DNA from: Candidatus Marinacidobacterales bacterium
GTDB lineage: Bacteria; Acidobacteriota; Vicinamibacteria; Marinacidobacterales; DATDRI01
DNA: 64,000 nucleotides
NCBI GenBank assembly: GCA_965226495.1
Contig: OZ245365.1
Span: 2,496,001-2,560,000, forward strand
Direction of reading: 5' to 3'
Below, piece after piece: positions 37,342 through 54,625 of this stretch; the first letter of the stretch is position 1, and each line of letters opens with the position of its first letter. The translations under genes were made by a program, and so were the position numbers. A model generated the notes under the pieces. The model worked only from the letters and a program-made list of their open reading frames with translations. It was not told the origin of the DNA and searched no databases.

Positions 37342-37369
37342 TTGACATGTGGAAAAACTGATCTATCCT
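37342..37369 (+). promoter_or_regulatory. Sigma-70-like promoter of the DUF885 gene (duplicated at 41434..41461)
   Basis: TTGACA-N16-TATCCT. Confidence 0.5.
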
Positions 37370-37535
37370 ACATTGCCCAACGGCGCGGTGTTCCAGTCCA
37401 CGGGTCCCCGCTAGGCCCGGCGCTCATGACGCCTGTTACTGAATTTCCTCCACTAAACGACATCAAAGCGGCTGGTTCAACCCGCCTTCGGCGCCTCGAA
37501 TCAACGGCTCTCGAATCTTGTCTCGGAGGAACGTC

Positions 37536-39230
37536 ATGAAACGCTTACGAGTATCAAAAATCGCGATCGGCCTGCTTGGCGTGTGCCTCCCCCTCGCCGC
37601 CCAAGGTACTTCGCAAAGCGGTTACCAACAGTTGGTCACCCTCGACAAAGAGTTCCTGGAATTCGCGAAACCCAAGCAAGTCGACGGCATCCCGGACTAC
37701 GGTTCCGAGGCGATGAAGGCGCAGAAGAAAGGCCTGGAAAACCTTCGGCAGCGTTTGGCGGCCATCGACGCCGACTCCTGGCCGACTAACCAAAAGGTGG
37801 ACTATCTCCTGGTGTGGGCCAGGCTCAATGAGCTCGACTTCGCCCACCGCGTGATGCGACCCTGGGCCCGAGACCCGACGCTCTACCTCGACCTGGTGAA
37901 CCGTTTGCCCTATATCGAGGTTCCCGTCCCGGAAGGCAAAGCGGCTCCGGCAGGTCCGAGAAAACTTCATCCGGTTATCCCGCGCATGTCGAAGACCGAG
38001 TTCCGCAACAAGTTACAAGCGGTGCCCGAGATCATGGCCGAGGCCCAGACCAACCTGACGGTTCCCGTGGGAGAGCTCGCCCATATCACACTTTTCCATC
38101 TAGAGAATTTCGACGGTGTGGGAGCGCGGGAGCCCTACCGCGATGAGCCGCCTGACGGCACCATCGGTTGGTATCAAGACTTGTGTGAGCGGCTCGCGCA
38201 ACACCAATCGGACCTCGTCTCCGATTGCCAAAACGCCCTCAAGGCCCTCGAAGGCTATCGGGATTGGCTCAAGGCGAAGGTCGACGAGATGCCCCAGTCG
38301 GCGGCCATCGGAATAGACAATTTCAACTGGTACCTCAAGTACGTCCGGCTCGTACCTTTCACGGTGGACGAGTTGGAAGCGCATGGCGAGCGGGAGCTGC
38401 AGCGCTACCGCGTCAGTTACATCATTGAGCGGAACAAGAATCGCAACTTACCCGAGCTCAAACTGACAGAGTCCAGAGAAGAGCACGAGGAGCGGACACG
38501 GAAAGCGGAGCAGAAGATTCGAGCTCTTATTGCCTGGCAGGACCTCTTGACCATCCCGGACTATATGCCCCCGGAGTTCGAAACCGACGTGTTCTGGAGC
38601 TCGAGAGCGCCGATCAAACGGCACTTCTGGGAGGAGATTCAGTTCCGGAACGCGCTCAACAACCACATCCACGCGTCCATCCCCGGACATCGTTTCGACG
38701 TAAGGCTCCGGGACCACCTCACCAGCCCCATCCGTCGTACCTATAATGACTGGAATCGCAGGCAAGGATGGGCAGTCTATCTCGAGGAGATGTTCGTACT
38801 GGCCGGTCTCACCGATGACAACCCTCGCGCCGCCGAGCTCTTCTACGCTGCTCTCATGAAACGGGCAAGCCGGATCTTCGCAGAGACGAAAATGCACAGT
38901 GGCGAGTTCACGCTGGCCGAGGCCAATCAGTTGATGATTGACTCCGTTCCCTTCATGGAAGAGGACTTAGGGCGTTACGACCTGGAGGGTTATCTACGCC
39001 GCCCCGGCGGGGGGAGCAGCTACCAGATTGGGAAAATACAAGTCGAACAATTAATGTTCGATCGGGCAACGCAGCTGGGAGATGAGTTCAATCTGAAGGC
39101 CTTCCACGACGAATTTCTGTCCAAGGGCATCATCCCGGTAACCTTGATTCGCTGGGAAATGACCGGTTTGGACGATGAAGTAAAGCCGCTGTGGGTAGAA
39201 GCAGTTGGGCCGCAACCGTCGGAGGATTAG
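37536..39230 (+). CDS. DUF885 family secreted protein (copy 1)
   Basis: Signal peptide. HxxIPGH, QGWAVYLEE, SYQIGK, LGDEFNLKAFHDEFLSKGIIP. Confidence 0.85.
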   Translation: MKRLRVSKIAIGLLGVCLPLAAQGTSQSGYQQLVTLDKEFLEFAKPKQVDGIPDYGSEAMKAQKKGLENLRQRLAAIDADSWPTNQKVDYLLVWARLNELDFAHRVMRPWARDPTLYLDLVNRLPYIEVPVPEGKAAPAGPRKLHPVIPRMSKTEFRNKLQAVPEIMAEAQTNLTVPVGELAHITLFHLENFDGVGAREPYRDEPPDGTIGWYQDLCERLAQHQSDLVSDCQNALKALEGYRDWLKAKVDEMPQSAAIGIDNFNWYLKYVRLVPFTVDELEAHGERELQRYRVSYIIERNKNRNLPELKLTESREEHEERTRKAEQKIRALIAWQDLLTIPDYMPPEFETDVFWSSRAPIKRHFWEEIQFRNALNNHIHASIPGHRFDVRLRDHLTSPIRRTYNDWNRRQGWAVYLEEMFVLAGLTDDNPRAAELFYAALMKRASRIFAETKMHSGEFTLAEANQLMIDSVPFMEEDLGRYDLEGYLRRPGGGSSYQIGKIQVEQLMFDRATQLGDEFNLKAFHDEFLSKGIIPVTLIRWEMTGLDDEVKPLWVEAVGPQPSED

Positions 39231-39607
39231 GCTCCGTCTAGAACATTTTTATGATCTTTTTTTAGAAGGTAAATCTAATACTGAACTTGACATACCTATT
39301 CTGATCAACCGTTAAGCATAGTACTGCCTAAGGCATTATATATGTCGATAAAAGCGCCCAGCTTTCCGAAGTCTCAAATCCCTTCGGGTCGCAGCTATAC
39401 ATGAGTTGAGTAAGCATGTCGCTCTTGCTCCCGAATGCGCCGAAAAGAAGGCTGTCGTTCGTGGACCACCATTCAAACTCTCAACCTATAAGAAAAGACA
39501 TGGAAAAGACAAAGAACTTAGACAACTTTTTAAAAATCGGTTCTTAAAAACATCGTTTTTCAACGTCGGTTTTTAAGGAAAAATATTCTTTCAAAAAGGA
39601 GGACGTA

Positions 39608-41301: not shown

Positions 41302-43332
41302 CGAGGACTACATTACCGCGATCAAGGTAGGCGCAAAAGTCATCGTAGAATGGTGTCGGTAGCTCTCACGGAAAACCAAACAGGGTCCCGACGCTTGTTG
41401 GCCGCTTTGCGTCTCTGCCTTCGCGTATTCTTGTTGACATGTAGAAAAACTGATCTATCCTACATTGCCCAACGGCGCGGTGTTCCAGTCCACGGGTCCC
41501 CGCTAGGCCCGGCGCTCATGACGCCTGTTACTGAATTTCCTCCACTAAACGACATCAAAGCGGCTGGTTCAACCCGCCTTCGGCGCCTCGAATCAACGGC
41601 TCTCGAATCTTGTCTCGGAGGAACGTCATGAAACGCTTACGAGTATCAAAAATCGCGATCGGCCTGCTTGGCGTGTGCCTCCCCCTCGCCGCCCAAGGTA
41701 CTTCGCAAAGCGGTTACCAACAGTTGGTCACCCTCGACAAAGAGTTCCTGGAATTCGCGAAACCCAAGCAAGTCGACGGCATCCCGGACTACGGTTCCGA
41801 GGCGATGAAGGCGCAGAAGAAAGGCCTGGAAAACCTTCGGCAGCGTTTGGCGGCCATCGACGCCGACTCCTGGCCGACTAACCAAAAGGTGGACTATCTC
41901 CTGGTGTGGGCCAGGCTCAATGAGCTCGACTTCGCCCACCGCGTGATGCGACCCTGGGCCCGAGACCCGACGCTCTACCTCGACCTGGTGAACCGTTTGC
42001 CCTATATCGAGGTTCCCGTCCCGGAAGGCAAAGCGGCTCCGGCAGGTCCGAGAAAACTTCATCCGGTTATCCCGCGCATGTCGAAGACCGAGTTCCGCAA
42101 CAAGTTACAAGCGGTGCCCGAGATCATGGCCGAGGCCCAGACCAACCTGACGGTTCCCGTGGGAGAGCTCGCCCATATCACACTTTTCCATCTAGAGAAT
42201 TTCGACGGTGTGGGAGCGCGGGAGCCCTACCGCGATGAGCCGCCTGACGGCACCATCGGTTGGTATCAAGACTTGTGTGAGCGGCTCGCGCAACACCAAT
42301 CGGACCTCGTCTCCGATTGCCAAAACGCCCTCAAGGCCCTCGAAGGCTATCGGGATTGGCTCAAGGCGAAGGTCGACGAGATGCCCCAGTCGGCGGCCAT
42401 CGGAATAGACAATTTCAACTGGTACCTCAAGTACGTCCGGCTCGTACCTTTCACGGTGGACGAGTTGGAAGCGCATGGCGAGCGGGAGCTGCAGCGCTAC
42501 CGCGTCAGTTACATCATTGAGCGGAACAAGAATCGCAACTTACCCGAGCTCAAACTGACAGAGTCCAGAGAAGAGCACGAGGAGCGGACACGGAAAGCGG
42601 AGCAGAAGATTCGAGCTCTTATTGCCTGGCAGGACCTCTTGACCATCCCGGACTATATGCCCCCGGAGTTCGAAACCGACGTGTTCTGGAGCTCGAGAGC
42701 GCCGATCAAACGGCACTTCTGGGAGGAGATTCAGTTCCGGAACGCGCTCAACAACCACATCCACGCGTCCATCCCCGGACATCGTTTCGACGTAAGGCTC
42801 CGGGACCACCTCACCAGCCCCATCCGTCGTACCTATAATGACTGGAATCGCAGGCAAGGATGGGCAGTCTATCTCGAGGAGATGTTCGTACTGGCCGGTC
42901 TCACCGATGACAACCCTCGCGCCGCCGAGCTCTTCTACGCTGCTCTCATGAAACGGGCAAGCCGGATCTTCGCAGAGACGAAAATGCACAGTGGCGAGTT
43001 CACGCTGGCCGAGGCCAATCAGTTGATGATTGACTCCGTTCCCTTCATGGAAGAGGACTTAGGGCGTTACGACCTGGAGGGTTATCTACGCCGCCCCGGC
43101 GGGGGGAGCAGCTACCAGATTGGGAAAATACAAGTCGAACAATTAATGTTCGATCGGGCAACGCAGCTGGGAGATGAGTTCAATCTGAAGGCCTTCCACG
43201 ACGAATTTCTGTCCAAGGGCATCATCCCGGTAACCTTGATTCGCTGGGAAATGACCGGTTTGGACGATGAAGTAAAGCCGCTGTGGGTAGAAGCAGTTGG
43301 GCCGCAACCGTCGGAGGATTAGGCTCCGTCTA
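41302..43332 (+). repeat. Copy 2 of the 2031-bp direct duplication
   Basis: Includes the last ~60 bp of the M20 gene, the promoter region and the whole DUF885 gene. Confidence 0.95.
41628..43322 (+). CDS. DUF885 family secreted protein (copy 2)
   Basis: Translation is identical to copy 1 in the ORF track. Confidence 0.85.
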   Translation: MKRLRVSKIAIGLLGVCLPLAAQGTSQSGYQQLVTLDKEFLEFAKPKQVDGIPDYGSEAMKAQKKGLENLRQRLAAIDADSWPTNQKVDYLLVWARLNELDFAHRVMRPWARDPTLYLDLVNRLPYIEVPVPEGKAAPAGPRKLHPVIPRMSKTEFRNKLQAVPEIMAEAQTNLTVPVGELAHITLFHLENFDGVGAREPYRDEPPDGTIGWYQDLCERLAQHQSDLVSDCQNALKALEGYRDWLKAKVDEMPQSAAIGIDNFNWYLKYVRLVPFTVDELEAHGERELQRYRVSYIIERNKNRNLPELKLTESREEHEERTRKAEQKIRALIAWQDLLTIPDYMPPEFETDVFWSSRAPIKRHFWEEIQFRNALNNHIHASIPGHRFDVRLRDHLTSPIRRTYNDWNRRQGWAVYLEEMFVLAGLTDDNPRAAELFYAALMKRASRIFAETKMHSGEFTLAEANQLMIDSVPFMEEDLGRYDLEGYLRRPGGGSSYQIGKIQVEQLMFDRATQLGDEFNLKAFHDEFLSKGIIPVTLIRWEMTGLDDEVKPLWVEAVGPQPSED

Positions 43333-45162: not shown

Positions 45163-48100
45163 TCACTTGCTGCCGAGGGTTCCTCCCAGGCGTACCAGCT
45201 CTTGGTTGTGCGGCCATCGCGCGAGCCCATCCTCGAGAAACCGGCGGGCCTCGCTTTCCTCACCCGACTGCACGTAGGCCCGGACGACTCTCACACAGAC
45301 TTCGGGTGATGGAGCGAGCTCGAACGCCTTTCGCAGGAGTTGGAGGGCTTCCCGGTGGCGCCCAACTTGACTGAGGGCGGTGCCCAGATTGAGGTAAGCC
45401 TTCACGAGCTCCGGCTCATAGGATATAGCCGCCTCAAAGGACCTGATAGCTGCGGACAAGTTACCGGAGCGTGCCTCCAGCGTGCCGAGGTTGTTGTGGG
45501 CCTCGGCAAAGTAGGGGCGTAGCTCGAGGGCGCGACGATACGCATCTCGTGCCTTGGCCTGCTGCCCGAGCGCCGCCGAGGCGTAACCGAGATTGTTATG
45601 GGCGTCCGCCAACCGCGGGTTCAAAGCGACCGCTTCCTCGAACGCGCGTCCCGCCTCTTTCCATCTTTGTTGGTTGAGCATCACCGTCCCGAGGTTGTAG
45701 TGTACCTGAGCCGCCGACTGACCCTTCTCGATGGCCTGTCGATAGAGCACCTCGGCGTGGCTCCAGTAGCCGCGCTCCGCGAACGCGTTTCCGAGCGCAA
45801 AATCGTTCCGAAAGAACTCGCCCACCAAATTGATGCCGTCGAAAGGGAGCCCGAGATGCTCCCGCTCTTCGGCGGTCCGAGGGATCCGTCTCGAGTCGGT
45901 CACAATTTCATCGACCCCGACAGCGCCGCGGTAGACTTTGACGATCCTTCCTCGCTCGTCGATAAGAAAGCTCATTGGAACACCCAAGTCCGAAACGCGG
46001 TCGTAAAGATTGGAGGCCAGAACCTTATAGACCCCCACCATCTCCTCATTGGCAATGAGCAGCGGGAAGTCGAGACCGAGCTCTGCCTGGAACGCGCGCA
46101 CAGCTTGCTCCGCCGGTGGCTCATCCACCGAGACCGCCAAGAGGGTGACGCCCGACGCCTCCAGCTCCGATCTCTTGGCCTTGAAATCGAGGAGCTCACC
46201 GCGGCAAGGGGCACACCAGCTCGCCCAGAAGTTCAGTAGCACCTTGCTTCCCTCGAGACTCGCAAGGCTGTGCGAATTGCCGTCTAAGTCGTCCAACGTG
46301 AAATCAGGGGCGGGCAAAGGATCCAGAAGCCACGTTCCCCGACGGGAGGCAGGCATGGCCCTGTCGGCTTTCGGAGCCGGTGTGACTCGGGATGGCTGGA
46401 AACGCTCTCGCCTGTAGTTCTCTTCCCCTTCGACCACGTAGATGACGTGATTGGCTGGGACGGACCGTAACGTTTGCACGAATCCGTTCGTCCAACGTAT
46501 GACGACCTTTTCTATTTTCCCCAAGCCTTCGAGGCCAAAATGCAAAGCCCGGCTACTTTGGGATAAATAGCCGCTCGCCGCACTCACGGTCTTTTGTCGG
46601 GTGGCGCCGGCTGCGTGCACCTCGACGCGCACGCCGATGGCGTCACGGTTGCTCGAGCGACCCTCCAAGACGAACCTAACAGCGGCCCGCCCGTTTGCCA
46701 GGTCGTTCCGCAGAAGCCGTAGCTGAGGCGCGTTTCGACTCTTGAGTGCAATATCGATGTCACCATCTAGGTCATAGTCGAATGCGACGAACGCTCGCCC
46801 GTCTTGGGGAAAGTCGAGCCCGCTGATACCTGAGGCGTCGATGAAGGTGCCATCACCGTTGTTCAAGTAGAAACAATTGCGCTCGTGTCCGCTCCAGCTT
46901 CCGTCACCGCGGATGAGTCGATCGATCGCGCTCCAGCTTCGCTCGTAAAGCTCCACCGCTTTTCTGTCATTGGGTGAGCGCGACACGACCTGCCGCCAAA
47001 AGAAACTTCAAAGGTCCTTCGTAGAGGTATTGGTAATGTAACCGTTGACGGTATAGAGATCGTCATTCCCGTCGTTGTCGCAATCGAAAAAATCGCTACT
47101 CCAGGCCCATCGCCCGAACTCCACTCCTGCCTCCTCAGCCACCTCTTCGAACCTTTCTCCCCCTAGATTGCGAAAAAGACTGTTTCCCTTGGCATGCCGT
47201 ACGTAGCTGCTCTGTGCCTCTCCGGCGTGGTAACCCGCCTGCGCAGTTAGGCGCAGCCCAGCAGAGGACCACATGTTGCCGATATAGAGATCATCCTTGC
47301 CATCGAGATCGTAGTCCGTCCAGGCCACACTCATGCCGGCCCCGATATCCTCTACCCCCGCCTCTCGACTCATCTCGACGAAAGTGCCGCTCACGTTCCG
47401 ATACAGATTGTTACGGCCGAAATCGTTCGCCACATAAAGGTCTAGCCAGCCATCGTTGTCGAAATCACCCCAAGAAGAGGAAAAACTGAAGCGATCGTTT
47501 CCGGCCTCTAGACCCGAACCAGAGGTGACGTCTTCGAACCTGCCGTCACCCTCATTCCGGAAGAGTATGTTTGGAGGCCCATTGGTGGCATCATGATAGG
47601 GGTAAGGCAGCGCAAGTGCGGTGTCCTCTCCGGGAGCGTCGACGTATCGGTAGCAGGTGACATAGAGGTCGAGGTCGCCGTCATTGTCATAGTCTGCCAG
47701 AGATGCCGAGCTAAGAGTCGCCTTGACTCCCTCCCTTCTCTCCAACGAATTGCGTGAAGGATCGAATCTCCCTTCGCCGTCGTTCAAGAGAAGCACGACG
47801 TTCCAGTTTTGGATGACCACAAGTAGATCTTGATCGCCGTCATTATCGACGTCACCGAAGAGGCCCATGGAGGTCCGTTCTAGCATGTCGATCCCCGACG
47901 CTTGGCTGATGTCCTCAAACGTCCCGTCGCCCCGGTTGCGGTAGAGCCGGTTGGGGAGTCCTTGCGGCTGGGCCACGAAAAGATCCTCGAGTCGGTCGTT
48001 ATCGACATCCCCCACCGCGAGTCCATTGTGCCCGTAGAGATCAACTCCACTGGCAGCGTCCATCCCAGCGCGGAAGTAATCGATACCCAGCCGCATCTGT

Positions 48101-48828
48101 TCCCAGTAGGAGGCTTCCTCGGCCCAGGCGATGCTACTCACGTCGGTAAAGAAGGGCGCCGCCGAATCGCCGCCGGTGGCGGGCTCGAGCTCGAGGCGCT
48201 TCATTTTCCAGACGCCATCGGAAAGGACCCAGTCGAGTCGCCACCAACCTAAACGGGAAATGATCTCGTTCCGCGCCCCTCGCCCCACCAGGTCGTACAA
48301 GACGCGAGTCCGTGCCTGGGCCGGAGCAGCATCCGAGGGAGCTCCCAGCTCGATGCTCACGATCTTGAACTTGAGTTCAGAAAAGGAATTGAAATCTTGA
48401 ACCCAAGACAAAAATTCTGCAGGCGCCTGGGCCGCGCCCACCGAAAGCTCATCTTTGTAGCTAAACCGGTAGAGTCGAACCCCGGGTGGTGCGGCGACCG
48501 GTTCGCTCGATACCGGAGCTAAAGATGTTGTCCGAAACTCCGCCCCGACCAGCGAGGCGATCGGTTCTGGGCGACGAGCTCGTAAGGCTTCTTCGAGTAC
48601 GTGAAGTCTCTTGTCGAGTGCTTCCGTGACCACCTCGGTCGCCCACCGATCTTGTTCGGCATCCACCGCGACGAAGAGGGACTCGACTGCGGAAGGCTTA
48701 GAAACGTAACCCCGGACTGGGAAGATTTGCTGGCTGTCTTCCGATTGTGGGTACCCTTCTGAATCGAGCGTCGGATGGATTAGGAGTAACAGGGCCACAC
48801 ATACCAAACGAGGGAACGACTCGACCAT
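45163..48828 (-). CDS. Predicted selenoprotein (~1221 aa, Sec at codon 607): FG-GAP/VCBS repeats + ASPIC/UnbV + TlpA-like thioredoxin + TPR
   Basis: In-frame TGA at 47010-47008 (TKDL*SFFWRQVVSRS) followed by a SECIS-like hairpin. GDVDNDGDQDL repeats on both sides, NRDAIGVRV..SGYLSQSS..LHFGL (ASPIC/UnbV), NFWASWCAPC, AHNNLG TPRs. The domain calls are confident; readthrough is inferred. Confidence 0.8.
46980..46996 (-). promoter_or_regulatory. Bacterial SECIS element candidate
   Basis: mRNA reads UGA-AGUUUCUUUUG(11 nt)-GCGGCA-GGUCG-UGUCGC. E. coli fdhF reads UGA-11 nt-GGUUGCA-GGUC-UGCACC. Confidence 0.75.
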
Positions 48829-49085
48829 ATTGGAATCTCTGGCTCCGACCCGAAAGCGGTGTGTGCTCGCTGGCAGTATCCTATCACGGGCACACGAAAA
48901 AAAGGGCCTCGCGATGGGGATCCCCCCCTGCGATGCCATCGGACGGAGATTGACTTCCCCCGGCTACGGCAGCATAGTGTCGGCGCACCGGGCCGGCGCA
49001 TCCGTAATTCTCCACCATCCTCCTCGGTCACACAGTCCCCCGGCAAAGGGCGCCCATCCCCGGTAAGCCGTTGTGGAGTCATATC

Positions 49086-52151: not shown

Positions 52152-54083
52152 TCATGCCGGCTCCAGGCGGACCGCGGTCTCGTTGTATGCGACCCCCCCG
52201 CCCGGAGTGAATCGATTCTTGAGAAGTGGGCTCATGGAGTGCCCGGTCTTCCACCATCCGCCCTTACGGCACACCACCAGATCCTGTCTTTGTGCGGCGT
52301 CTAGCTCTAGTGACACCTCCACGCTTCCCTCGGGAGAGCGGAGGCGCGCTTTTCGATCGGACGCCACACCGAATCGGGCCGCAGTCTCCGGGTGTACCTT
52401 GACACTCGGAAGTCCGGAGGGCCTCATGTTGACGAGCTGCGTGTTGGTCCCCTTCCGGGTGGCGCCAGAGACAAGGCGAAGCGGAAACTCATCGTCGATC
52501 GCGGGTGCGATGGGCGTGCTGGTGGGAAACAAGAAACGCTCCGATGGGGTCTCGAACTTCCCTCCTTTATAAGGTAGCCGCTCCGCCTCCGGGAAGACCT
52601 GAGAACCTTCCTTCAAGACCTGATAGCTCCAGCCGTTGTCGTTCCACGGCGTGACCGCGCGGTCTATCCATTCCGCCGCGGTTCCGGCCATCCCTTGACC
52701 AAAGCCAAGCGCCTCGGCGAGCGCCTGGTAGATGGCTAGATCCGATTTCACTTCACCGGGCGCGGGAATGACGGGCTGGGTCACGCTCGCGGTGAAATGG
52801 GAACCGCTGAAGGCCAGGTCTTCATCCTCGAGGAACGTCGTCACTGGAAGCACCAGATGCGCGCACTCGGCGGTATCGGTGAGGAATTGATCCACCACGA
52901 GATTGAACTCCCGCTTCATCAGAGCTTCCCGCATGGTCTCGGGTCGTGCGTGCTGGGCAACCGGGTTGGCCCCGGTGATGAAAGTGGCGGTGATCGGTGG
53001 ATCTTCGAAGGTCTCTAGGCTCTTCGCGATGTGGCCGACCGGGACGTTCCGGTGCTTGGCATCGAGCTCTTTACCCGTGATGATCGGATCTAGATCGCCC
53101 CAAGGCCATCGGGCAAAGTTCACCCCGGCTCCAGGGACACCGATGTTCCCGGTGAGAACGGCTAGGGCGGAGACGTGGGCGACCACTTCCGCACCGTGGG
53201 AGTACTGTTGTAGACCGACTCCGGGATAAATCGTCGCGGGACGTCGGCGCGCCATCGCGTCGGCTAGGGCGTGCACTTCCTCAACCGTGACGTCGGCCCG
53301 CCGCGCTCGCTCGGCAACTTGGACCGAGGTCACTTCCTTGCGGTAAGCTTCGAAGCCTTCGGTGTGATCGGAAATGAAACCCTCGTCCGCCCATCCCTCC
53401 GTCAGAATGACGCTCGCCACGGCCTGCGCCAGCTCGTGATCGAAACCGGGACGGGGCTTGATCTGGACGTCCGCTAGGACAGTGCTCTCCGTCACGACCG
53501 GATCCACGAGGAGAATCCGAACGCCTTTCTGTCTCGCCTTTCGGAGCCACGGAACCAGATGGATCTGCGTCGCGGCCGGGTTTCTTCCCCATAGAACGAT
53601 CGTCCGGCTATTCAACACATCCCGCGTGTCGTGACATAGGACGTTCCCGAACGAGCGGATGAAGGCGTAGATCCCTTCACCGGCGCAGTAATTGCCGTGC
53701 GCGCGGGAAGCCCCTCCCCAGAGGCCGATGAAACGATCGTATAGATGCTTGAGGGCTCCCATGGAGCCATGTCCTTTGAGTGTGAAGAGTGTCCAGGGGC
53801 CGTAGCGTTCTCTGAGACGCGAGAGCTCGGAGCCGGCGTACTCTATCGCTTGCTTCCAAGAGATCCGCTCGAACCCGTTGGGCCCGCGGCGCAAAGGGTA
53901 AAGCAGTCGATCCTTGTGGTAGACGCGCTCCGCATACTTCGAGACCTTGTGGCAGAGAAAGCCTCGAGTAATGGCGTGGTCCGGATCGCCCTGGAGTCGG
54001 ACTAGCCGATCGCCATCGACGTGTGCGAGGACCGAGCAGGTATCCAGGCAGTCGATGATGCAGGTCGTGCGAATGATCTTCAC
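52152..54083 (-). CDS. Molybdopterin-dependent oxidoreductase (DMSO reductase family, cytoplasmic)
   Basis: TCIIDCLDTC 4Fe-4S motif, GDPDHAITRGFLCHK, RISW, WGRNP, DQFLTDTAECAHLVLP. Likely GTG start at 54083. Confidence 0.9.
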   Translation of the reverse strand: MKIIRTTCIIDCLDTCSVLAHVDGDRLVRLQGDPDHAITRGFLCHKVSKYAERVYHKDRLLYPLRRGPNGFERISWKQAIEYAGSELSRLRERYGPWTLFTLKGHGSMGALKHLYDRFIGLWGGASRAHGNYCAGEGIYAFIRSFGNVLCHDTRDVLNSRTIVLWGRNPAATQIHLVPWLRKARQKGVRILLVDPVVTESTVLADVQIKPRPGFDHELAQAVASVILTEGWADEGFISDHTEGFEAYRKEVTSVQVAERARRADVTVEEVHALADAMARRRPATIYPGVGLQQYSHGAEVVAHVSALAVLTGNIGVPGAGVNFARWPWGDLDPIITGKELDAKHRNVPVGHIAKSLETFEDPPITATFITGANPVAQHARPETMREALMKREFNLVVDQFLTDTAECAHLVLPVTTFLEDEDLAFSGSHFTASVTQPVIPAPGEVKSDLAIYQALAEALGFGQGMAGTAAEWIDRAVTPWNDNGWSYQVLKEGSQVFPEAERLPYKGGKFETPSERFLFPTSTPIAPAIDDEFPLRLVSGATRKGTNTQLVNMRPSGLPSVKVHPETAARFGVASDRKARLRSPEGSVEVSLELDAAQRQDLVVCRKGGWWKTGHSMSPLLKNRFTPGGGVAYNETAVRLEPA

Positions 54084-54106
54084 GTTGGCGATTGTACTAT
54101 CCCGCT

Positions 54107-54625
54107 TCACCGGCGACGGCCGCCACCCGTTTGGGCACGCTGGGCCTTCAACTCCCAAGGCGGCACCGGCTTGGGAAGCGACCAGATGCCAATGCCCGCG
54201 GCCCGAGCGTTCGATTCTGCTTTCGCTAGAGCAGGATCTGCCGAGTACCTCTTGTAGTGCCAGGCAAGCCCTGCCCGGACCAGTTCAACCGAAACGTCTT
54301 GGCCATCGATGAAGACCCGAGCCACAAGGCGTCCATAGCGATCGGTTTCCTTGACTCGAAGGGTGACGACCTTGCCGAGCACCATGTTGGCTGTGAACTT
54401 CTTCGCTCTCGCGCTAAAGTCATCCCCGTACTCCGGGCAGTCCACTCCCTCGAGGCGTATCTTTAGTGTCTTGCCGCCTCGCAGGACTTTGATAGTGTCG
54501 CCGTCGGTTATGCCGACGCACGTTCCACTAGGAGTTTCGCAGGCAAGCGAAAGATGGGCAAAGACGAGGCTGGCGAGCAGCCAGGAACCCGTACCGGGCC
54601 ATTGGGGCAGGGATCTTGTTTTCAA
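54107..54625 (-). CDS. Thermonuclease (SNase) family protein
   Basis: ITDGDTI, IRLEGVDCPE, DRYGRLVA, LVRAGLAWHY, AR..GIW. Start uncertain (TTG 54625). Confidence 0.88.
   Translation of the reverse strand: MKTRSLPQWPGTGSWLLASLVFAHLSLACETPSGTCVGITDGDTIKVLRGGKTLKIRLEGVDCPEYGDDFSARAKKFTANMVLGKVVTLRVKETDRYGRLVARVFIDGQDVSVELVRAGLAWHYKRYSADPALAKAESNARAAGIGIWSLPKPVPPWELKAQRAQTGGGRRR

Follow-up and report, generated by a model that had tools for sequence, protein, structure and literature searches.

The gene considered here raises the question of whether an in-frame TGA codon marks the end of one protein and the beginning of another, or instead encodes selenocysteine (Sec) within a single, longer chain. 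The gene is located in a stretch of 64,000 nucleotides (nt) from a Candidatus Marinacidobacterales bacterium (contig OZ245365.1, positions 2,496,001 to 2,560,000; hereafter the window), where it occupies 45163-48939 of the minus strand when read as one unit interrupted once, by a TGA at 47010-47008. Specifically, open reading frame (ORF) A, at 47008..48939(-), closes with the residues YITNTSTKDL followed by the TGA, ORF B, at 45163..46986(-), shares its frame, the codons bridging the two encode SFFWRQV, and the terminal stop of the gene is again a TGA (45165-45163). Translated through the internal TGA, the product comprises 1259 amino acids (aa) with Sec644 when begun at the ATG at 48939, and 1222 aa with Sec607 when begun at the Met at 48828, which is followed by a hydrophobic, signal-like stretch and is the more likely start; residue numbers below count from the ATG at 48939. 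A first-pass annotation of the window had joined the two ORFs across the TGA into an exported chain of about 1221 aa, with Sec607 in a propeller loop and FG-GAP repeats to either side of it, a WCAPC thioredoxin domain in the same chain, and a hairpin, GCGGCA-GGUCG-UGUCGC, 11 nt past the UGA. The ORFs and Pfam matches bear out the joined frame, the domains and the coordinates, the hairpin is exactly as described, and the sequence strings of that annotation are the reverse complement of the window's forward strand. Its central proposal, that the TGA is a Sec codon, is almost certainly correct, being strongly supported by the presence of Sec machinery, a TGA column shared by 64 loci, covariation within the hairpin, and a spacing and loop resembling those of formate dehydrogenase (FDH) genes in the same genome.

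The machinery for Sec incorporation is encoded in the window genome, a single contig of 6.34 Mb, in which selA, selB and selD all exceed their NCBIfam cut-offs and there is also a tRNA-Sec (anticodon tca). Among the 56 genomes shown below to carry TGA forms of the gene, selA is found in 52 (background 300/401) and the remaining four each contain a tRNA-Sec above the Rfam cut-off. The window genome also provides internal points of comparison. Two FDH-like genes with an in-frame TGA, at C1:1800365-1803361(-) (L054) and at about C1:1766480-1767667(-) (L055), place Sec in the contexts ARL-U-HGPTV and NRT-U-HAPSV (U denoting Sec). Both carry strong hairpins about 11 nt past the UGA, ...CCA-GUC-UGG... 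and CGUCGUC-GGUCU-GGCGACG, with loops GUC and GGUCU, and the first is matched by the Rfam model SECIS_3 (68 bits versus a gathering threshold of 63), SECIS denoting the selenocysteine insertion sequence. The selD gene (C1:5697808; L001) is itself a selenoprotein gene, with an in-frame TGA in TSAG-U-ASKL and a hairpin, GAGUCC-AGU-GGAC(C)UC, that lies 11 nt past the TGA, has the loop AGU, and is missed by the Rfam SECIS models.

Conservation of the TGA extends well beyond the window. A comparison with 41 related genomes shows exactly one TGA in each of the 21 best matches to residues 480-800 and none in weaker FG-GAP matches. These 21 loci consist of orthologues at 83-92% identity together with two groups of paralogues at 37-43%, and in 21/21 the TGA occupies the same alignment column, within the motif D-[LT]-U-S-x-F-W-R and in contexts of the form KD[LT]-U-S[FL]FWR[QH]VV or GD[ST]-U-S[TI]FWRAVARD. 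Three such genes are found in the window genome itself, the other two being located at C1:4670998-4671936(-) (L046) and C1:3214382-3215377(-) (L047); each has the TGA, the hairpin and a C-terminal CxxC domain, and one is lipoprotein-like. Among 401 genomes sampled across the phylum of the window, 80 contain a match at E<=1e-40, and the 103 matches listed for them divide into 74 with exactly one TGA and 29 with none, the TGA forms being spread over 56 genomes. Named genome records add TGA forms in Planctomycetota and in one metagenome-assembled genome (MAG) of the Cytophagia, found by a pattern search that placed Cys at the Sec position and was thus biased against TGA forms; what it recovered was mostly distant CRTAC1-like genes, plus seven TGA forms from other phyla and a single Cys homologue (L109). 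Five of the genomes added in this way contain between 2 and 8 copies, of which nearly all have one TGA, and one contig has three in tandem. The tandem array belongs to a planctomycete MAG (G443, C40:18378-24670; L194-L196) and consists of three Sec CRTAC1-like genes of the UxC type defined below, in a genome with eight matches of which seven have one TGA. In total, 64 distinct TGA loci share one alignment column across three phyla, the third being that of the window, whose close homologues are named Acidobacteria or Terriglobia. The locus counts include L069 (G089) and L107 (G192), both from unpublished genomes, and the tallies for the 41 genomes, the 401 genomes and selA include G007, G089, G192 and G064. 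The gene family spans at least three phyla.

A second feature conserved along with the TGA is the hairpin that follows it. At the window locus a spacer of exactly 11 nt (47007-46997) precedes the arm GCGGCA (46996-46991), the loop GGUCG (46990-46986) and the arm UGUCGC (46985-46980). When 44 TGA loci were compared with 24 TGA-free loci, a perfect stem of >=6 bp (G-U allowed) starting 8-15 nt past the codon was present in 40/44 of the former versus 4/24 of the latter. In codon-aligned alignments of 39 nt, the six proposed pairs are formed in 81.5% of cells across the TGA loci, a value reached by 0/500 shuffles (72.8 +/- 1.5) and compared with 28-67% for slid controls; across the TGA-free loci 56.9% of cells are paired, and 34/500 shuffles are as high. 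Covariation is most readily followed in the fourth stem pair (alignment columns 18/28), which is C-G in 16 loci, G-U in 9, A-U in 2, G-C in 2 and U-A in 1, and which is unpaired in 17/24 TGA-free loci. On the 5' side the pair uses the silent third position of an Arg codon, and this position covaries with the first base of the codon that follows Val-Val, a codon for Ser, Pro, Thr or Ala. Similarly, the Val codon in the loop is GUC in 37/44 TGA loci versus 5/24 TGA-free loci, and a third subfamily has the hairpin GCGUGC-GGUC-GCACGC, likewise 11 nt past the TGA. These comparisons indicate that the hairpin is under selection, and only where the TGA is present; a TGA with a conserved hairpin in homologues was among the checks that the first-pass annotation had proposed. 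One TGA-free orthologue (L106, G126:C389) has GAG (Glu) at the column, has lost the CxxC motif and retains the hairpin intact, GCGCCA-GGUCG-UGGCGC, 11 nt downstream, and in a congener (L108) the hairpin is gone; Sec was possibly lost only recently in L106.

An assembly error does not account for the TGA, because contigs from other runs contain it without differences and because 63 other loci have a TGA in the same column. Specifically, three more public runs, each from a different study, yield contigs that match this stretch of the window with 0 differences, one of these runs being possibly the source sample, and a 258-nt contig from an RNA (metatranscriptome) library spans the TGA with 0 differences, the cover in that library lying within 46806-47077. 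In addition, dozens of foreign contigs in three metagenome runs match 46973-47016 only, at a depth of 95-284 versus 5-25 alongside, which shows that conservation at the nucleotide level peaks in this segment of about 40 nt, containing the TGA and hairpin, across many organisms.

The protein that would result from Sec insertion has a continuous domain architecture (Table 1), in which Sec falls in the last third of the FG-GAP propeller and the WCAPC motif of the thioredoxin-fold domain forms residues 908-912 (46204-46218). The TPR repeats are restricted to the subfamily of the window gene and are absent from both paralogues in the same genome. The N-termini of the window protein and of the two paralogues resemble, as judged by eye, signal or lipoprotein signals, consistent with an extracytoplasmic domain of the ResA/TlpA type.

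Table 1. Features of the Sec-encoding gene in the window, with the evidence on which each is based.
Feature	Coordinates	Strand	Evidence
Whole predicted selenoprotein gene	45163..48939	(-)	Two same-frame ORFs joined by one TGA; continuous domain architecture
In-frame TGA, read as Sec	47008..47010	(-)	Same alignment column in 64 distinct loci
SECIS-like hairpin	46980..46996	(-)	Starts 11 nt past the TGA; inside the W-R-Q-V-V-S-R codons
FG-GAP (CRTAC1-like) beta-propeller, residues ~295-760	46660..48057	(-)	Pfam FG-GAP_3, 6 stretches, 147.7 bits
UnbV_ASPIC domain, residues 767-832	46444..46641	(-)	Pfam, 58.2 bits versus cut-off 23.4
ResA/TlpA-like thioredoxin-fold domain, residues 876-1008	45916..46314	(-)	Pfam AhpC-TSA/Redoxin; ResA, TlpA and StoA structures
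C-terminal TPR repeats, residues 1047-1250	45190..45801	(-)	Pfam

An AlphaFold2 model of residues 279-1016 is confident (predicted local distance difference test 90.9, predicted template modelling score 0.91) and places the TGA site inside the fold. In this model helix 366-376 begins with Sec, following a strand and a loop, and C909 is placed alike, just before or at the start of helix 632-643; such a position at a helix N-terminus is typical of reactive Cys and Sec residues.

The best fold match in the PDB is murine CRTAC1 (9etn_A; E 6.8e-26, template modelling (TM) score 0.71 on the target, 594 columns), which is also the sole PDB sequence match, and both FG-GAP_3 and UnbV_ASPIC lie above their Pfam cut-offs. 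Despite this resemblance, identity to CRTAC1 is 18%, the bacterial protein adds Sec, the thioredoxin-fold domain and the TPR repeats, and the literature surveyed contains no record of CRTAC1 as a selenoprotein. The C-terminal thioredoxin-fold domain, in turn, resembles ResA, TlpA and StoA (TM about 0.8 on the target, 23-34% identity, W-C-x-P-C present); unlike those proteins, it is fused to a propeller and is conserved only where Sec is present. Its scores fall below the NCBIfam equivalog cut-offs for ResA (81.2 versus 170) and TlpA (63.4 versus 230; NF002854, NF047696), so that the likeness is one of domain only and the protein is not a member of those equivalogs. It likewise scores 79.4 versus 300 for the WAxxUGC ResA-like selenoprotein NF041054, its own motif being W-C-A-P-C with no Sec in that domain. 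More generally, 0 NCBIfam families match the propeller part, and the redoxin and TPR matches are all below cut-offs.

With regard to the hairpin, the textbook case of an in-ORF SECIS with SelB-dependent recoding of UGA is E. coli fdhF. Compared with the FDH genes of the window genome, the element described here similarly begins about 11 nt past the UGA, lies within the coding sequence and has a G(G)UC apical loop; it differs in its 6-bp stem, in having no extended lower helix, bulge or SECIS_3 match, and in its unrelated host protein. Fusion of catalytic domains to a TlpA-like recycling domain is known from Neisseria PilB/MsrAB. The pairing of Sec with a nearby thiol, seen here as UxC in 14 loci, also has precedent, in that selenoproteins with a vicinal resolving Cys are known with UxxC, CxxU and UxC motifs (PMC13188914, Table 1). 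The present family is unlike both the vicinal-Cys selenoproteins and PilB in having Sec in a beta-propeller rather than a thioredoxin fold, and in the near absence of homologues with Cys in place of Sec.

The distribution of partner thiols gives some indication of what the Sec residue might do. A CxxC motif located 245-284 residues past the Sec column is present in 43/44 TGA loci versus 4/24 TGA-free loci, and in 2/34 database homologues, whose consensus at this site is SxxS; the only member of the 44 without it (L101) has a Cys at +2. Consistent with this pattern, the columns that are >=85% conserved in 15 Sec forms and <=20% in 36 others are Sec644 itself, W908, C909, P911 and E915, along with F617 and N622 just upstream of Sec. 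Among all 64 Sec loci, 48 combine U-x-[not Cys] with a ResA/TlpA-like CxxC domain, 14 are of the UxC type (USC, URC or UTC), with no redoxin domain and an ORF that ends 201-230 residues past Sec, two have neither arrangement, and 0/64 have both. In a tree of 63 Sec forms, the UxC forms fall into two distinct clades, both well supported and both embedded next to CxxC forms. A second tree, which combines 98 Sec and non-Sec forms, requires at least 5 changes of state for Sec and at least 7 for CxxC; of five independent pairs, 2-4 show CxxC following Sec and none shows the opposite. Together, these sequence comparisons are suggestive of a link between Sec and a partner thiol, be it the CxxC domain or the +2 Cys.

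Such a link would fit the following mechanism. SelB and tRNA-Sec would recode the UGA, aided by the short in-ORF SECIS hairpin 11 nt downstream, to yield an exported product of about 1220-1260 aa composed of an N-terminal domain, the Sec-containing propeller, the UnbV/ASPIC domain, the ResA/TlpA-like CxxC domain and the TPR repeats. At the N-terminus of its helix, Sec644 would act as the redox-active catalytic residue, and C909/C912 of the fused domain would resolve its oxidised state (a selenenic acid or selenenyl-sulfide), a task that in forms lacking that domain would fall to the Cys two residues past Sec; the fused domain would then be re-reduced by the reducing pathway of the envelope. 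It is very probable that the codon is recoded through SelB, tRNA-Sec and the hairpin to give one exported protein of a widespread family with a predicted Sec-dependent redox role. From sequence and modelled structure, the protein is likely to be an exported Sec-dependent oxidoreductase, and one might guess that its substrate is a peroxide or a disulfide or sulfoxide in the cell envelope. More tentatively, the family may represent a novel class of extracytoplasmic oxidoreductases whose scaffold is a propeller of the CRTAC1 type, with Sec obligatory and the resolving thiol modular, such that lineages losing Sec drop the chemistry rather than turning to Cys, the site drifts and the CxxC decays; this is quite possible.

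Homologues lacking the TGA offer a further view of the Sec column. In the protein database, 34 full-length proteins share the four-part architecture and are 49-54% identical over residues 480-860, a few of them being named Terriglobales, Terriglobia or Acidobacteria. At the column these proteins have S (20), A (9), N (3), E (1) or G (1), and the 24 TGA-free loci have E (6), N (5), S (4), A (3), G (2), D (2), Y (1) or L (1). The sole Cys homologue, L109 from a Bryobacterales MAG, lacks the hairpin, and its redoxin motif is degenerate. Of the checks put forward in the first-pass annotation, Cys in some homologues was the only one to fail, the place of Cys being taken by the residues just listed. 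That annotation had also held that homologues with never Cys or TGA at this position would speak against Sec; since TGA is abundant at the column, the scarcity of Cys does not refute the Sec reading. Its suggestion of a Sec/dithiol relay with the WCAPC motif draws real support from the comparisons: Sec does co-occur with CxxC or a vicinal Cys, and the relay itself is still an inference, the contrasts that remain after correction for phylogeny being too few. Nearly all selenoproteins have Cys homologues, and current search methods may miss those that do not, according to PMC12013277; the near absence of Cys homologues would accordingly explain why this family is uncatalogued. A Cys homologue is the usual hallmark of a selenoprotein and not a mechanistic requirement.

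Several observations weigh against the interpretation developed above. Firstly, the hairpin is short (6 bp) and without the extended lower stem of the FDH elements, and the 63 nt after the TGA fold no better than shuffled sequence (z 0.45, 138/200 shuffles equal); with the single-sequence fold at chance level, the significance of the hairpin derives from the comparative data alone. Secondly, no Rfam SECIS family (SECIS_2 to SECIS_5) matches 46850-47100 at E<=10, a negative that carries no weight because these models are gene-specific and also miss the selD of the same genome. Thirdly, selA was not found in 4/56 TGA-form genomes, and the contig from the RNA library could stem from DNA carry-over. 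With respect to catalysis, Cys occupies the Sec column in only 1/59 TGA-free homologues (24 loci, 34 database proteins and L109), and the variability of the column in non-Sec relatives would be compatible, too, with a position that takes no part in catalysis. L112 and L200, both of them Sec forms with a good hairpin, have no evident partner thiol, that is, neither CxxC nor a +2 Cys; L200 retains a Cys-free thioredoxin-like tail. Finally, independent contrasts are too few for significance both for the link of Sec with CxxC (5 pairs, p 0.125-0.5) and for that of UxC with the absence of a redoxin domain (2 pairs, p 0.5).

The variability of the column is also what most favors the first alternative, in which Sec is inserted without any catalytic role and the UGA and SECIS serve as a selenium-dependent gate, translation otherwise stopping after the N-terminal 643 residues. 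Among uninterrupted homologues with this architecture the position may be S, A, N, G, D, E, Y or L and is almost never Cys, which is the appearance of a site that tolerates substitution. A gate nonetheless fails to explain why Sec tracks an intact CxxC (43/44 versus 4/24), why a +2 Cys is found in 14/14 forms lacking the redoxin domain, and why a single fixed column at a helix N-terminus is used across subfamilies of 30-40% identity, and this alternative is accordingly judged improbable.

Less probable still is that the TGA is a true stop, the locus comprising either two separate genes, with the propeller split between them, or a pseudogene. Such a reading can draw on current annotation, since gene callers split the gene and the protein database holds no full-length close relative (best 54% identity), and on a possible GTG start for ORF B at 46986. 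That standard annotation would split the gene had been predicted from the sequence, and the lack of any full-length database relative above 54% identity, yet the occurrence of orthologues of 57-92% in genomes, agrees with such splitting. A true stop is hard to reconcile with 64 loci from three phyla that each contain a single stop, invariably TGA and invariably at one alignment column, and whose two halves are otherwise open. It would also cut a confidently modelled single fold, and the hairpin covaries. Furthermore, the S-x-F-W-R motif, which is conserved in TGA forms and uninterrupted homologues alike, is encoded between the TGA and any restart, and in the paralogue L047 no ATG, GTG or TTG occurs in the 24 codons past the TGA.

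Least credible of all is read-through without Sec, whether by a near-cognate tRNA for Trp, Cys or Arg or by lineage-specific reassignment, for while conservation of both halves demands read-through alone, TGA is the commonest terminator in the window genome (890/2114 open stretches of >=400 codons, indicating a normal code) and ends the window gene itself, selA or tRNA-Sec is present in all 56 TGA-form genomes, the hairpin shares its spacing and loop with the FDH elements of the genome, and Trp and Arg never occur at the column among the 59 TGA-free homologues.

SECIS-dependent bacterial selenoproteins are already known as a kind, and the Sec CRTAC1-like family is essentially undescribed in the literature surveyed. 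None of the 119 prokaryotic selenoprotein families in Table 1 of a May 2026 review (PMC13188914) resembles an FG-GAP, ASPIC or CRTAC1 propeller. Terms for the family are absent from the searched text of PMC13188914, PMC12013277, PMC13326102 and PMC1794560, which include the deep-Sep and BSepDB papers. The main text of PMC4807772 does not mention ASPIC, FG-GAP or UnbV, and a literature search for selenoproteins with FG-GAP or ASPIC domains, or from Acidobacteria, returned nothing on a Sec CRTAC1-like family. The traits that set the family apart are the location of Sec in a beta-propeller, the near absence of Cys homologues and the modular partner thiol.

The consequences for annotation are considerable, in that 14% of the genomes sampled in the phylum of the window (56/401) contain genes of this family that are split or called pseudogenes, some planctomycetes have up to seven such mis-annotated genes, and selenoproteomes are undercounted. 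Searches for new selenoproteins that rely on Sec/Cys pairs, as described in PMC12013277, can miss a large family that is almost without Cys homologues. The two alternative arrangements of the partner thiol constitute a natural experiment by which the catalytic hypothesis can be tested directly, and the family may inform the function of CRTAC1/ASPIC-type proteins. Were the propeller indeed a Sec-obligatory oxidoreductase, it would be a rare natural case of selenium doing what sulfur cannot, and would hint either that a redox enzyme was ancestral to the CRTAC1 fold or that this fold can accommodate one.

The surroundings of the gene in the window include amidohydrolases, DUF885 proteins, an M23 peptidase, a molybdopterin oxidoreductase and an Nramp-like protein, the Sec-encoding gene being alone on its strand, and this neighborhood offers no clue to function. 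The molybdopterin oxidoreductase gene (52152-54158(-); Fe4S4, Molybdopterin and Molydop_binding domains) lies 3 kb away, is without an in-frame TGA and has no evident link to the Sec-encoding gene. Elsewhere in the window, a perfect direct repeat of 1889 bp, either a recent duplication or an assembly artefact, is found at 37352-39240 and 41444-43332; each copy contains an identical ORF of 570 aa encoding a DUF885 protein (37518-39230 and 41610-43322), and the M23 peptidase gene lies in between.

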